Below are positions 5,055 through 16,299 of a stretch of 25,438 nt of DNA, piece after piece. This DNA is from a virus, in the UHGV virus genome UHGV-0213490. One strand, written 5' to 3'. Below the pieces are notes generated by a model. The model was not told where the DNA came from, did not search any database, and was given only the letters and a program-made list of their open reading frames with translations. Each line of letters begins with the position of its first letter. Position 1 is the stretch's first letter. A program made the translations under genes and the position numbers.

Positions 5055-5121
5055 AACTATAGGTAATGCCTAATTATTTGTCAATAGGCTATGCCTAATA
5101 ATTTAGATGCAACCTAATAAG
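5055..5121. promoter_or_regulatory. OL-like operator cluster with putative leftward promoter
   Basis: aTAGGTaatGCCTAAt (5059-5074) and aTAGGCtatGCCTAAt (5084-5099) share half-sites with the OR palindromes; a third half-site CCTAAT lies near 5115. Confidence 0.55.
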
Positions 5122-5192: not shown

Positions 5193-5669
5193 TTAAGTTC
5201 CTGTCTTGGTGATGTTCTGGCTTTTCCGTTTTGATTCTTGATTTTTCAAATAGTTACCTACCTTCATTTCCATTGCGGCAATGTAGGCGCGAACGTCATG
5301 ATCAACCCAACTAGGCTCCGTAGCATTTCCAGATAAGAGGAAAGCTACAATTGCTCTTTTTTCATCAGAGGCGGCTTGATAAAGGCTGTTTATGTCTAAA
5401 AGTTCACTTTTTGTATTTGAAGTGGATGGGGTTGGTATGGGGTATTCGTTAAGCCCCCAATGCTCTGGACCAACCACATCAGAAAAGAAACGCCATAGTT
5501 CTGGAAGTTTATCTTTACTTATCGAACCTTTCTTAATCCAGTCATGGATTGATGGTGGTTGGACTTTGAAATGACGTGCGATCTCCGCCTTTGATTTGAC
5601 GGCTCCTGATGCAATTTTTTTGTTAATGGCCTGCTCTATCGCTCGGCCCAAGTCTTTACCACTAAGCAT
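5193..5669 (-). CDS. racR: Prophage repressor, RacR-like (HTH, no S24 peptidase domain)
   Basis: 158-aa ORF; N-terminal HTH (KSKAEIARHFKVQPPSIHDWIKKG); no LexA-like Ala-Gly/Ser-Lys autocleavage region; divergent from the cro-like gene; matches E. coli Rac RacR from memory. Confidence 0.75.
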   Translation of the reverse strand: MLSGKDLGRAIEQAINKKIASGAVKSKAEIARHFKVQPPSIHDWIKKGSISKDKLPELWRFFSDVVGPEHWGLNEYPIPTPSTSNTKSELLDINSLYQAASDEKRAIVAFLLSGNATEPSWVDHDVRAYIAAMEMKVGNYLKNQESKRKSQNITKTGT

Positions 5670-5694: not shown

Positions 5695-5766
5695 GCGTTA
5701 GGCAATCCCTATGTTTAGTGCATTAGGCATAGCCTATTGACAATTGCGTTAGGCGAAGCCTAATAT
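5695..5766. promoter_or_regulatory. OR-like tripartite operator with pR/pRM-type divergent promoters
   Basis: Three palindromes about 25 bp apart: TTAGGCaatCCCTAT (5698-5712), TTAGGCataGCCTAT (5723-5737), TTAGGCgaaGCCTAA (5749-5763); TTGACA (5737-5742) and TAATAT (5761-5766) with 18-bp spacer upstream of the cro-like ATG. Confidence 0.65.
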
Positions 5767-5793: not shown

Positions 5794-6117
5794 ATGAAAA
5801 AAGAGAACTATTCATTCAAACGGGCTTGTGTTGTTGTCGGTGGGCAATCAGCAATGGCTAGGCTTTTAGGTGTATCTCCTCCAAGCGTAAATCAATGGAT
5901 CAAAGGTGTACGTCAGTTGCCTGCTGAGAGATGTCCTGCGATTGAACGAGCAACAAAAGGTGGTGTCCTGTGTGAAGAACTTCGTCCTGATGTTGATTGG
6001 TCATACTTACGACGCCTGTCATGTTATTCGCAGAATATGTCGATGAAGCAACCAAATGACGAAAACGATCATACCCGAAGCATCAAGAGGCAAATGATTC
6101 ATGAAAATCAAACATGA
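5794..6117 (+). CDS. ydaS: Cro/YdaS-like HTH regulator
   Basis: ATG 5794 (MKKENYSFKRACVVVGGQSAMARLLGVSPPSVNQWIKG) with HTH; first rightward gene after the operators; resembles Rac YdaS from memory. Confidence 0.75.
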   Translation: MKKENYSFKRACVVVGGQSAMARLLGVSPPSVNQWIKGVRQLPAERCPAIERATKGGVLCEELRPDVDWSYLRRLSCYSQNMSMKQPNDENDHTRSIKRQMIHENQT

Positions 6118-6526
6118 GCACATCCGCATGGCGATGAATGCCTGGGCGCGTCCGGATGGTGAAAAAGTTCCGGTAGCCGAGATAACCAGGGTTTATTTCG
6201 AGCTGGGCATGACGTTTCCTGAGCTGTACGACGACAGCCATCCGGAAGCCCTGGCCCGCAATACTCAGAAAATTTTCCGCTGGGTAGAGAAAGACACCCC
6301 TGATGCTGTTGAAAAAATTCAGGCGTTGTTACCAGCGATCGAAAAAGCAATGCCGCCTCTGCTGGTGGCCCGAATGCGCAGCCACAGTTCAGCCTTTTTT
6401 CGGGAACTGGTGGAGACGCGGGAACGACTGGTGAGAGACGCTGATGATTTTGTCGCAGTGGCGATCGCTGGTTTCAATCAGATGAATCGTGGTGGCCCGG
6501 CGGGAAATGCCGTGGTCGTTCATTAA
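6101..6526 (+). CDS. ydaT: YdaT-like protein (cII-position regulator or toxin-like)
   Basis: 141-aa ORF overlapping the end of the cro-like gene; RBS AAGAGG 9 nt upstream; position and size match Rac YdaT. Confidence 0.65.
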   Translation: MKIKHEHIRMAMNAWARPDGEKVPVAEITRVYFELGMTFPELYDDSHPEALARNTQKIFRWVEKDTPDAVEKIQALLPAIEKAMPPLLVARMRSHSSAFFRELVETRERLVRDADDFVAVAIAGFNQMNRGGPAGNAVVVH

Positions 6527-11316: not shown

Positions 11317-11653
11317 AAGGAAACAAAACAGAAACAGCAATTGCCGTTACCTGTTGTTATCATGGCAAGTAAACGTATCTCAGGCGAGCGCATTGCGCCG
11401 TTCTGACGCAGATAAACTAGCCTGGATAGATGGTGCTGGCAATAAAAAATAGCGTTTTCTTATCGGTGTCGGTAAGATTGCTGCGGGTGCTTGAGGCTGT
11501 CTGCCTCGGGCATGCCACTGTAAGGCAGACAGAGAAAAGCCCCAGTTAACATTACGCGTCCTGCAAGACGCTTAACATTAATCTGAGGCCCAATCTATGT
11601 CTCACAAATGTAGGTTAGCCTCTTACGTGCCGAAAGGCAAGGAGAAGCAGGCT

Positions 11654-11809
11654 ATGAAGCAGCAAAAGGCGATGTTAATCGCCCTGATCGTCATCTGTTT
11701 AACCGTCATAGTGACGGCACTGGTAACGAGGAAAGACCTCTGCGAGGTACGAATCCGAACCGGCCAGACGGAGGTTGCTGTCTTCGTGGACTACGAATCT
11801 GAGAAGTAA
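11654..11809 (+). CDS. hok: Hok/Gef-family type I toxin
   Basis: MKQQKAMLIALIVICLTVIVTALVTRKDLCEVRIRTGQTEVAVFVDYESEK: single TM plus conserved CE..R.G..EVA motif; AGGAGA RBS; in-frame upstream ATG at 11597 gives a mok-like extension. Confidence 0.85.
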   Translation: MKQQKAMLIALIVICLTVIVTALVTRKDLCEVRIRTGQTEVAVFVDYESEK

Positions 11810-11881
11810 GAGTGACTAGGCGGGAGAGTAATCTCCCGCCACCTCTGATGTGTCAGGCATCCTCAACGCACCCGCACTTAA

Positions 11882-11902
11882 CCCGCTTCGGCGGGTTTTT
11901 TC
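11882..11902 (+). terminator. Rho-independent terminator of the hok transcript
   Basis: CCCGC-ttcg-GCGGG plus TTTTTT; preceded by a GGCGGGAGAGTAATCTCCCGCC hairpin (11819-11840). Confidence 0.75.
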
Positions 11903-12021
11903 ACGTACTGTGGTTGTGAATACGATTGGTATTAGGCTATGCTAACAACATTAGCCTGACTAATTTTGTATTGACTTGATTTTTTGTTAAAGAACAGGAC
12001 GGAGAAGTAAGGGTACACCCA

Positions 12022-12201
12022 ATGAGCTACGCACTAAAAAAACACCCGCGATTGACTATTCCCCCTCGCGATAAAAGCGTTGTGGCAGCTCCGCGCCCGG
12101 CTATTGATGAAAATTGCACACATCGTGAGCAGGTGAAAAATGCTTTCGATTTCGGTTTTTCTCGTTACGAGAAGGCAATGGAAGAACTTTCAAAAGTGTA
12201 A
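12022..12201 (+). CDS. Candidate antitoxin/partner of the Fic/Doc toxin
   Basis: 59-aa ORF (MSYALKKHPRLTIPPRDKSVV...EKAMEELSKV) ending 10-19 nt before the Doc-like gene; below the ORF-track length cutoff; not recognisably Phd/YefM. Confidence 0.5.
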   Translation: MSYALKKHPRLTIPPRDKSVVAAPRPAIDENCTHREQVKNAFDFGFSRYEKAMEELSKV

Positions 12202-12210
12202 TAATGGGTA

Positions 12211-12705
12211 TTGTGCTCTATGGCTGAGATTGTTGAAGGAGTGCACTATCTTTCGGTTGATGATCTTACTGAAATCAATCGCCTTTTAATTGAGCTTCAA
12301 ACACCAGATGAACCTGTAGGTGTGCTGAGTGTTGATAATTTAAGTTCTTCTCAGGCCCGTCCCAGCATGGTTCGATGGTATGAACAGATCAATGACATGT
12401 TTGTACTGGCATCGGTATTGATTGAAAGTCTGATTCAGAATCATCCGTTTGCTAATGCGAACAAACGAACAGCTATGATGGCTGGTTACGTCTTCTTGTT
12501 GTTGAATGGCTATGAGTTAACAGCACCAGGCGATGAAATCGTGGAAATGGCAGAGGGACTGGCCTGCAAAACCTATACTCGAGAAGATCTCGAGAACTGG
12601 TTGTGTTATTGGTCTCGTGCGTATGACAGCCGGGAATTATGTAAAACAGGCGCAACTATTGTTTTGTATGAAACTATCAAGCTTAAAATAGAACAGCAAA
12701 ACTAA
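12211..12705 (+). CDS. doc: Fic/Doc-family toxin (death-on-curing-like)
   Basis: Doc-type Fic motif HPFANANKRTA; alternative ATG at 12220. Confidence 0.8.
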   Translation: MCSMAEIVEGVHYLSVDDLTEINRLLIELQTPDEPVGVLSVDNLSSSQARPSMVRWYEQINDMFVLASVLIESLIQNHPFANANKRTAMMAGYVFLLLNGYELTAPGDEIVEMAEGLACKTYTREDLENWLCYWSRAYDSRELCKTGATIVLYETIKLKIEQQN

Positions 12706-12720
12706 AGGTGCTTCCAATGA

Positions 12721-12745
12721 AAACCCGCTTCGGCGGGTTTTTTGT
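12721..12745 (+). terminator. Rho-independent terminator (second copy of the hok terminator sequence)
   Basis: AACCCGCTTCGGCGGGTTTTTT, identical over 22 nt to 11880-11901. Confidence 0.75.
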
Positions 12746-14887: not shown

Positions 14888-15772
14888 TTATATTGGGCGC
14901 TTTGAATTCGATTTAAAGCGTCTTCCACTTATTCCAGAAACCCAAATGTCTTCCTCAAGAAAGTCAAGAAGGGCTTTTATTTCTTTTTTTGATGAAGGCA
15001 TGACAATTTTCTCAACGCCGCCAACTATTATGGTTTGTAAGGGGAATTTAACTTTAGCAGCTTCGGATTTAAACTTTGACATATTTGGGGGTGTTAGCAT
15101 CCCAGTCTGATTTATTAGTGTTACTTTATTTCTTATCACTGTATCTGCAACGGATTTTAGATCAAAACCTTGGGGAGTAGAAAATACACTAAGTTGACTA
15201 AATGCATTAAGTTCTTGGTCAGTAGCAGCAGAAAAATAGGACGACATGTCAAAAATGCTTCTTAGATTAAAGAAACTCTTAAATCGTATTGTATCATTGA
15301 TAATTATTGCAACTAGTTTATCATCAACATTAAAACCGATGCTATTAGCTTTACTAAAGGTAGTTTTGCTTGCAAAAAGCTTTCCAAAGAATGATTTTGA
15401 GGTATCTAAGATTTGTTTTTTGTTGAAAGTTTGTAGTGCAATAATATTGGGGTTTGCTGGCGCGTCAACACCAACAAATAATGCTTTAATATAACCAATA
15501 TCAATTTGGCTAGGATCCCAGATAGGCACGGCGGTAGGCCTATTGACTGCGTCAATCAGGCGTGCAGAATCAGTAAAGTTTTGTATTTCAAAACACTCAC
15601 TATGTTTTGGTGTATAACCGGCATAGAATGGTATCATATTGTTATGATGACTTTCAAAATATTGACGCTGTTGTTGGAAAATGGCCGTAACAGAAGTACT
15701 TGCTGTTGCATCAAGTTCGACTCTAACAATTCTCGTTGCAATTGTATTATCTATTACTGCAAAAAGTGCCAT
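14888..15772 (-). CDS. Unknown 294-aa soluble protein, gene 2 of AT-rich cassette (candidate defence effector)
   Basis: Long ORF in strongly AT-rich DNA on the opposite strand to the flanking phage genes; AAGGAT RBS; 5-nt gap from the upstream membrane gene; no motif I recognise. Confidence 0.7.
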   Translation of the reverse strand: MALFAVIDNTIATRIVRVELDATASTSVTAIFQQQRQYFESHHNNMIPFYAGYTPKHSECFEIQNFTDSARLIDAVNRPTAVPIWDPSQIDIGYIKALFVGVDAPANPNIIALQTFNKKQILDTSKSFFGKLFASKTTFSKANSIGFNVDDKLVAIIINDTIRFKSFFNLRSIFDMSSYFSAATDQELNAFSQLSVFSTPQGFDLKSVADTVIRNKVTLINQTGMLTPPNMSKFKSEAAKVKFPLQTIIVGGVEKIVMPSSKKEIKALLDFLEEDIWVSGISGRRFKSNSKRPI

Positions 15773-15777
15773 GGTTA

Positions 15778-16299
15778 TTATCCTTTAACATGTAGAAATG
15801 TGTAGTCTGTTAATTGAATAACTGTAAATTTGATATCTTTAATATCAGTAATGACTGATTTAGAAATCAATACAAAACCTACGCCGGTGTCATCTTCAGC
15901 TTCGTAAAATTTATAACCGATAAGTGACAATACTGGGTTAAAGTTATAGTTCTCGGAAAAGCTGATGTAAAATAACAATGACAAATAAAAGAATAACGCA
16001 TATGCTTTATTTTCAGCAATAGAATCTGTTCCTAGGAGAGGGAATAAATAGCTTAAGAAATAATTAGTTACTTCTTTGTTAGCTGGAGAAACTGAACTAA
16101 TATTTTTTGTCAGAGGTTCAAGTTGTTTCTCAGCATATTGAATCAGGCCTATTGCTAATAACCAACTTGCTATGCCAACGCATAAGCTATATTGCATCAG
16201 CCAAACCGTATCTTTTACATATCCAATAAAAAATAGAGTTGCGCAAACAGGTGCAATTGAGCTGGCCGTTAATAATAAGCGTGCTAATTTGTTCATCAT
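15778..16299 (-). CDS. Unknown 173-aa polytopic membrane protein, gene 1 of AT-rich cassette
   Basis: Three to four hydrophobic helices (LLLTASSIAPVCATLFFIGY, WLMQYSLCVGIASWLLAIGLIQY, YFLSYLFPLLG, AYALFFYLSLLFYISF) plus about 55-aa C-terminal tail; AAGGA RBS. Confidence 0.7.
   Translation of the reverse strand: MMNKLARLLLTASSIAPVCATLFFIGYVKDTVWLMQYSLCVGIASWLLAIGLIQYAEKQLEPLTKNISSVSPANKEVTNYFLSYLFPLLGTDSIAENKAYALFFYLSLLFYISFSENYNFNPVLSLIGYKFYEAEDDTGVGFVLISKSVITDIKDIKFTVIQLTDYTFLHVKG

Follow-up and report, generated by a model that had tools for sequence, protein, structure and literature searches.

Which protein keeps a prophage-borne Doc toxin in check when the gene directly upstream of it encodes only 59 amino acids (aa) and bears no resemblance to the Phd/YefM antitoxins? 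The question is raised by the virus genome UHGV-0213490, the whole 25,438-nucleotide (nt) stretch of which was analyzed (hereafter, the window, in whose coordinates all of the features below are given), and in which a Doc-family toxin gene follows a small open reading frame (ORF) on the same strand. The original prediction, made from the bare sequence, had singled out this pair, called the upstream partner unusual, and suspected that a nearby inverted repeat ties it to the immunity repressor of the prophage. We consider it probable that the cassette is a two-gene type II toxin–antitoxin-like module, in which the 59-aa protein would be a minimal Doc antitoxin lacking a DNA-binding domain.

The small gene and its pairing with the toxin gene

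The small ORF (12022–12201, + strand) begins with an ATG, and its product (RefSeq WP_000119356.1, a “hypothetical protein”) falls into PHROG 2208 with an E-value of 2.7e-42, a cluster labelled as being of “unknown function”. It is a real gene, as its pairwise ratios of non-synonymous to synonymous substitution rates (dN/dS), calculated with the window copy as the reference, are 0.05–0.10 and thus equal to or below those of the Doc gene (e.g., 3 non-synonymous versus 14 synonymous differences); the last 24 codons are the most constrained part, with a dN/dS of 0.06 for codons 36–59 versus 0.26 for codons 1–35. The family is small, as an exhaustive search with its profile among 1.84 billion representative proteins returned only 39 relatives, nearly all of them 38–95 aa long. 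Conserved within the alignment of 37 family sequences, which also served as the input for structure prediction, are an N-terminal (L)xIPxRDK motif, an AxPxP stretch and QVxNAFxxxFxRYxKAxxxLSKV at the very end of the protein.

The pairing of the two genes was surveyed from both sides, using 89 loci retrieved via the small protein and 8 close Doc relatives retrieved via Doc. A Doc gene lies 10–31 nt downstream of the small gene in all 89 of the former, and a family member is found directly upstream in each of the eight latter ones (from Serratia, Providencia, Morganella, Rosenbergiella and Kluyvera); the Doc-based scan of genome contigs returned only nine loci, so that the systematic survey covers the close relatives of Doc. 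Paired loci were seen in phages of Escherichia, Salmonella, Serratia, Providencia, Ewingella and Pseudomonas, the P2-like Pseudomonas phage Sirocco carrying a Doc that is 57% identical and a still recognisable homologue of the partner (MGHALKKTDRIYIPPRDKS...FQRYEKALEELAKV). The flanking genes differ completely among the loci, being those of the nin region in some, tail/baseplate genes or dinI/umuDC in others, and, in the P2-like Pseudomonas phage, the genome end next to a tRNA; with surroundings this dissimilar and the pair itself constant, the two genes evidently move as a unit. The layout is that of a type II module, i.e., a small co-oriented gene upstream, strict co-occurrence and a short gap, so the small ORF proposed as the upstream partner turned out to be a dedicated and conserved companion of Doc, co-occurring strictly with it in all of the loci examined.

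As for the toxin, its gene (12220–12705, + strand) would encode 161 aa from the ATG at 12220 (MAEIVEGV...), a start supported by the RefSeq annotation of identical cassettes and by 45 homologues beginning with MAE.VEG. The maximal ORF (12211–12705) reaches the 164 aa given in the original prediction if the TTG at 12211 is used; the ORF, the motif and the family that it named hold, whereas its length is likely to be the shorter one. Judged by its sequence, the protein is clearly a member of the Doc family, with matches to TIGR01550, the Doc_P1 subfamily (126 bits, 9e-37), and to the Pfam family Fic, PF02661 (45.8 bits, 1.2e-11), that exceed the curated cutoffs of 38.65 and 24 bits, respectively. 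The catalytic motif HPFANANKRTA (12442–12474, + strand) fits the pattern HxFx(D/N)(A/G)NKR (HPFANANKR at 12442–12468), and H75, F77, N79, N81, K82 and R83 are invariant in an alignment of 45 homologues from many Enterobacterales. The closest solved relative is the Doc of Enterococcus faecalis (PDB 9VZC; E-value of 9.6e-14, residues 6–116), P1 Doc (PDB 3K33) being matched with an E-value of 1.9e-5 over 63 residues. The TIGR01550 match ends at about residue 134, and the residues past approximately 145 vary among relatives. The toxin is thus an ordinary Doc family member and is already annotated as a toxin publicly; PADLOC returned only marginal Doc matches and lacked a model of the small protein. 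The two ORFs share a reading frame and are separated by the tandem stops TAA TAA and five sense codons before the ATG at 12220 (12199–12219).

The partner as a putative minimal Doc antitoxin

The profile search of the 59-aa protein led to the PHROG 2208 family and to no characterised domain. No Pfam or NCBIfam match was obtained for the protein, none of the 37 family members matched PF02604 (Phd/YefM) at E-values up to 10 or any of the AbrB/MazE families of Pfam, and the sequences of the PDB gave only chance matches to the family profile (ribosomal protein S25, E-value of 0.09; a RES-domain protein, E-value of 1.2). A comparison of the family with a P1-Phd alignment by hhalign reached a probability of 1%. 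By its sequence, the protein is therefore outside of the Phd/YefM family, just as was originally supposed, and these searches show a partner with neither a globular nor a DNA-binding domain, unlike Phd (YefM fold), the Enterococcus “Phd” (AbrB-like) and PanA (Panacea). No natural antitoxin–Doc fusion was present among the 120 Doc homologues listed.

What could such a protein do to Doc? AlphaFold, run on the 37-sequence alignment, predicts a single helix at residues 34–57 (predicted local distance difference test score (pLDDT) of 92–95; predicted template modelling score of 0.36), preceded by residues 1–33 as a coil without regular structure, within which the conserved IPxRDK motif is situated; besides the helix, this 33-residue extended N-terminus with its (L)xIPxRDK is the only feature of the partner. 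One helix with an extended N-terminus fits a neutralising element that folds upon its toxin rather than a DNA-binding domain. Elements of this kind are well known, as the Phd proteins of P1 and Salmonella neutralise Doc via their residues 52–73, with hot spots at F56, I59, M/F60, H63, L67 and L70 (PMC9207808), the Enterococcus antitoxin does so via residues 52–79, attached to an AbrB-like domain (PMC13034048), and Corynebacterium PanA has a “Phd-C” element, which neutralises Doc on its own as a SUMO–Phd-C construct (PMC10440598); single-domain antitoxins are known as well (PMC10440598).

Counted from the C-terminus, the hydrophobic residues F42, F46, Y49, M53 and L56 of the 59-aa protein coincide with the Salmonella/P1 Phd hot spots F56, M/F60, H/L63, L67 and L70, the last leucine being the fourth residue from the C-terminus in Phd, in EFPhd and in the window protein. 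The C-terminus (RYEKAMEELSKV) is weakly similar, in the same register, to the tails with which other Doc antitoxins bind their toxin. When a profile of residues 33–59 was run against 1,533 background ORFs from eight loci, the two best matches from outside of the family were ORFs directly upstream of Doc genes, one from a Moorella phage (ending with ERYRPALEELAK-COOH; E-value of 0.028) and one from a Listeria phage (MNQYEDALKDL; E-value of 0.04). Aligned by hhalign with the AbrB-type Doc antitoxins, the family pairs its C-terminus with theirs over 27 columns in the expected register (P = 0.009, probability of 4.6%). From the predicted structure and this weak sequence similarity, we infer that the 59-aa protein is a putative antitoxin, and its C-terminal helix is consistent, albeit weakly, with a Phd-C-type Doc-binding element. 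The epithet “unusual” given to the partner thus stands insofar as no known N-terminal domain is present, and fails insofar as the C-terminal helix resembles the Doc-neutralising tail of Phd- and AbrB-type antitoxins.

Along these lines, the cassette would be transcribed in lysogens from a promoter of its own, and the amphipathic helix 34–57 (...FDFGFSRYEKAMEELSKV) would bind Doc in the way in which the Phd-C helix of other Doc antitoxins does. Doc would, as expected from its family membership, be a Fic-fold kinase that phosphorylates EF-Tu and halts translation once the labile antitoxin has decayed, the outcome of which could be either prophage stabilisation or the abortion of a superinfection. 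It is doubtful, in our opinion, whether one can go further and see in the family a distinct class of minimal Doc antitoxins with (L)xIPxRDK as a second functional element, and in the pair a portable two-gene abortive-infection module shared among unrelated temperate phages; if so, the motif might make a novel inhibitory contact, at either the active site of Doc or the EF-Tu surface, or, alternatively, serve as a degron or a sensor triggered by a superinfecting phage.

A separate observation concerns the Moorella phage, MTATph1, whose Doc partner (locus L103, 590–1125) is a “hypothetical” protein of 54 aa with no evident DNA-binding domain that ends with ERYRPALEELAK, like the window protein. 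It is conceivable that minimal Doc antitoxins evolved repeatedly, or that annotation underestimates how common they are. We also tried to read the N-terminus of the 59-aa protein as a remnant AbrB hairpin (RLTIPPRD compared with TTIPPEV of the Listeria antitoxin), which neither Pfam nor hhalign supported.

The cassette as a self-contained moron

The pair belongs to a unit of 842 bp (11902–12743) that comprises a leader/promoter region, the small gene, the Doc gene and a terminator of its own, and this unit is a self-contained moron inserted after the terminator of a hok/sok locus. Its bounds are given by the perfect 22-nt direct repeat AACCCGCTTCGGCGGGTTTTTT at its edges, by a contiguous empty site and by divergent right flanks. 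The first copy of the repeat (11880–11901, + strand) is the hok/sok terminator at the left edge, and the second (12722–12743) is part of the intrinsic terminator of the cassette at the right edge (12719–12743, + strand), which was found by a terminator scan. In the empty site, a single copy of the repeat runs straight into the sequence from 12744 onwards; queried as the hok terminator joined directly to that sequence, and counted if the match covered at least 80%, it was found contiguous, at about 98% identity, in 2,677 of the 5,426 complete E. coli genomes. The filled site is present in 165 of the same 5,426 genomes (~3%), always on the chromosome, with O157:H7 and O104:H4 strains among the carriers, and the cassette is also found in many Enterobacterales prophages. 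Beyond the T-run of the cassette terminator, the right flanks vary among the carrier prophages.

In being a unit of putative promoter, genes and terminator between two conserved phage genes with a clean presence/absence polymorphism, the cassette is like other lambdoid morons; unlike in these, its terminator duplicates that of the neighbouring hok exactly, which suggests gain or exchange by recombination at that sequence. Recombination seems to have taken place inside the cassette as well: a subset of the E. coli copies (L033–L058) has a leader unrelated to that of the window and an antitoxin with 88–90% aa identity as opposed to 96–97% for Doc, and in one of them (L052) the synonymous divergence is 0.68 for the antitoxin gene versus 0.22 for the Doc gene, so the antitoxin and the leader are more diverged than the adjoining Doc, and a breakpoint between or within the two genes is indicated. 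Within the cassette, the matches of an Rfam scan were terminator-like ones below the threshold, and none was significant.

The leader (11902–12021, + strand) is a putative promoter region, judging by the alignment of sister cassettes. Aligned on (T/C)ATTA(G/A), which lies 72–114 nt before the start codon, the sister leaders share TTGxxC-N18-TA(G/A)A(C/T)T, the −10-like element 18 nt past TTGxxC being TAGACT, TAAATT or TAGGCT. The candidate −35 element of the window is TTGTGA (11914–11919, + strand), and the candidate −10 element is TAGGCT (11933–11938) or, preceded by TGG, TATGCT (11938–11943), both on the + strand; a Shine–Dalgarno-like AAGGG follows at 12009–12013 (+ strand).

The inverted repeat noticed in the original prediction (TTAGGCTA at 11932–11939, a 12-nt spacer and TAGCCTGA at 11952–11959) is indeed there, its left arm overlapping the −10-like element; it does not rise above chance, however, as its arms are complementary at 7 of 8 positions with an exact core of 6 bp, and the 120-nt leader holds four such 7/8 repeats, equivalent to two independent ones, versus 0.86 in shuffled sequences (p ~0.05). 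It is also broken without compensation in several variants (L013, L017, L022 and L029), while the sister cassettes have TTAGAC or TTAAAT in place of its TTAGGC and are devoid of the right arm. A better repeat, ACAACATTAG-CCTGA-CTAATTTTGT (11945–11969; 5-nt loop, complementary at 9 of 10 positions), closely follows the −10-like element and has arms that are intact in the E. coli variants, in which the substitutions hit the loop; an operator and an RNA hairpin are both conceivable. Several sister leaders (L074, L009, L059, L086 and L073) contain a palindrome, GCACTGCC(A/T)AA(C)GTGC, some 20–45 nt before the antitoxin start and just before the ribosome-binding site; TGCACTAATTTAGTGCA is found in Salmonella and TTGGCnnGCCAA in another group. 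The window has none of the three, all of which could be subtype-specific operators or RNA hairpins.

Is the cassette wired to the prophage immunity?

The immunity operators of the window are 15-bp palindromes, TTAGGC-N3-GCCTAA, arranged as two triplets (5059–5117 and 5698–5763). In what is a classic OL/OR layout, the triplets flank a gene for a 158-aa repressor of an uncharacterised family (5193–5669, minus strand), which has no Pfam match. Since TTAGGC is the half-site of all six operators, and since TAGGCTATGC at 11933–11942 recurs in one of them (5084–5098), the repeat at 11932–11959 had been thought to hint at repressor cross-talk; were it an operator of the RacR-like repressor, the module would be coupled to immunity. 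We hold this to be highly improbable. The site at 11932–11946 has three mismatches to the 15-bp operator pattern, and sites of this quality are at the background level (14 found versus 9.4 expected); the half-sites are 20 bp apart from centre to centre (8-nt arms, 12-nt spacer) as opposed to 9 bp in the real operators; and TTAGGC is not enriched in the window (8 observed versus 10.8 expected). According to the alignment of sister leaders, in which TTAGAC or TTAAAT takes its position within a conserved −10-like element, the TTAGGC of the window is part of the cassette's own −10-like element, and the disruption of the repeat by natural variants points the same way. What we regard as decisive is that the identical leader, repeat included, is found in two prophages free of TTAGGC-type operators, one (in O104:H4) with lambda cI immunity and a visible lambda OR, the other with a third helix-turn-helix (HTH) repressor, and the cross-talk is, therefore, not supported.

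Setting in the prophage

The genome is a Rac-like lambdoid E. coli prophage with the integrase at its left end, and a rather mosaic one, as a search with the whole window found no complete genome covering more than 52% of it in one place. YdaS- and YdaT-like genes (5794–6526) and replication genes lie upstream of the cassette, and DUF968, RusA and Q lie downstream of it, which makes “nin-like” a fair description of the region to which the module had been assigned. Directly upstream of the cassette is a complete hok/sok type I toxin–antitoxin locus (11485–11901) with the sok RNA (11485–11659; Rfam, 118 bits) and the mok/hok ORF (11597–11809; Pfam HOK_GEF, 1.1e-22). A Salmonella locus (L005, 3496–6009) contains hok, the Doc cassette, ParDE and VapBC in this order, and an E. 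coli O104:H4 locus (L090, 9757–11434) contains hokD, the Doc cassette and, on the opposite strand, an HTH protein with a RelE/ParE-family toxin; the position looks like a hot spot for toxin–antitoxin modules. Elsewhere in the window, just downstream of the Q gene (14888–16299, minus strand), a 294-aa ORF matches the Kiwa protein KwaB (PF16162, 4.2e-7) and is preceded by a 173-aa ORF without a Pfam match that could be a KwaA-like partner; going by the sequence match, the two would be a second defence-type accessory unit of this prophage.

Weighing the antitoxin against other roles

Several points weigh against a minimal antitoxin expressed from a promoter of its own. The similarity of the tail to those of other Doc antitoxins is weak, both in the profile search (E-values of about 0.03 in a small database) and in hhalign (the 4.6% given above), and the hhalign alignment with P1 Phd is in another register as well, placing FSRYEKA against FEAYKKA, a different segment, which is why homology to P1 Phd itself is not claimed. 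Hydrophobic periodicity is common to amphipathic helices, so the match to the hot spots could be a coincidence. IPxRDK, despite its strong conservation, is not explained by an antitoxin model; the AlphaFold model of Doc (45-sequence alignment) is a poor one, all-helical with a mean pLDDT of only 52.8; a scan of the window for consensus promoters found none on the + strand; and no operator is common to the cassette subtypes, each leader having palindromes of its own, even though the N-terminus of the protein is conserved.

Could the 59-aa protein then be an obligate partner of Doc of some other kind, e.g., the transcription factor of the operon, a folding or targeting chaperone or adaptor, or a sensor that activates Doc? 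Its lack of homology to characterised antitoxin domains would agree with that, as would IPxRDK, conserved nearly as well as the helix and left without a role by the antitoxin model, and, according to a work cited within PMC10440598, P1 Doc is itself completed by its partner via “fold complementation”. Gene order, size, short gap and strict co-occurrence, however, are the pattern of type II antitoxins, the strongest constraint is on the very helix that resembles Doc-binding tails, and neither a DNA-binding fold of the protein is predicted nor an operator conserved among the cassettes, all of which makes us regard such a role as unlikely. The other possibility lies with the enzyme, which might be a phage accessory that modifies a protein of the host or of a competitor phage other than EF-Tu, its specificity being tuned by the small protein. 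PHROGs places Doc-like proteins in the category “moron, auxiliary metabolic gene and host takeover”, Fic/Doc enzymes vary in their chemistry and targets (PMC10440598), and the Doc clade of the window has a variable C-terminal extension of approximately 30 residues that is missing from P1 Doc; yet the motif, which has the Lys of NKR, is invariant and of the type seen in Doc kinases, the closest relatives of known structure are genuine Doc toxins, and the company that the cassette keeps is that of other toxin–antitoxin modules (hok/sok here, ParDE and VapBC in Salmonella, the HTH protein with the RelE/ParE-family toxin in O104:H4), which, taken together, leaves this reading quite improbable. A two-gene module with a minimal Doc antitoxin thus remains our preferred interpretation.

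Relation to known systems and significance

How much of this is new? With Phd-Doc of phage P1 (PDB 3K33 and 3DD7) and of Salmonella, the cassette shares the co-oriented gene pair with the small gene first, the HxFx(D/N)(A/G)NKR motif of the toxin and the hydrophobic residues of the C-terminal helix at the hot spots, including the corresponding leucines (L70 of 73 residues in Phd, L56 of 59 in the window protein). It differs in that the P1 Doc is only distantly related to the Doc of the window, in that the partner, at 59 aa, is without a Phd/YefM domain and, by prediction, without any folded domain at its N-terminus, and in being a chromosomal lambdoid moron instead of an addiction module of a plasmid prophage. 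Phd-Doc of Enterococcus faecalis (9VZC; PMC13034048) provides the closest solved Doc and an antitoxin whose bent C-terminal helix inserts into it, and the tails of this antitoxin and of the Listeria phage one (...YKELVTK and ...YEDALKDLVDL) are in register with ...YEKAMEELSKV of the 59-aa family; these antitoxins, however, are 78–79 aa long and bind DNA, at a palindromic operator, via an AbrB-like beta-sheet domain, whereas the 59-aa family gives no AbrB/MazE match and is aligned with them by hhalign at the C-termini only. Doc:PanA and the single-domain antitoxins (NetFlax, PMC10440598) are alike in concept, their Doc-neutralising element being a portable C-terminal helical segment, but the window partner has no Panacea domain and belongs to a distinct cluster, PHROG 2208, with an IPxRDK motif of its own. 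Antitoxins reduced to the neutralising element and the portability of Phd-C are established concepts, and the interest lies mainly in an uncharacterised family that would be a natural minimal Doc antitoxin with an unexplained, conserved N-terminal motif. Literature searches by accession, PHROG number and keyword found no study of the 59-aa partner, and a paper describing one such phage lists the Doc-family toxin and leaves the partner unnamed.

Public annotation, likewise, has Doc as a toxin and its partner as a “hypothetical protein”, and if PHROG 2208 were recognised as the cognate partner, both genes of a cassette carried by ~3% of the complete E. coli genomes would be annotated. The practical and conceptual gain is a moderate one, as the modularity of type II antitoxins is known and the system conforms to it. 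The cassette is, nonetheless, a natural test of whether a bare “Phd-C” helix suffices to control Doc, and it points to a conserved eight-residue motif in the N-terminus of the partner.

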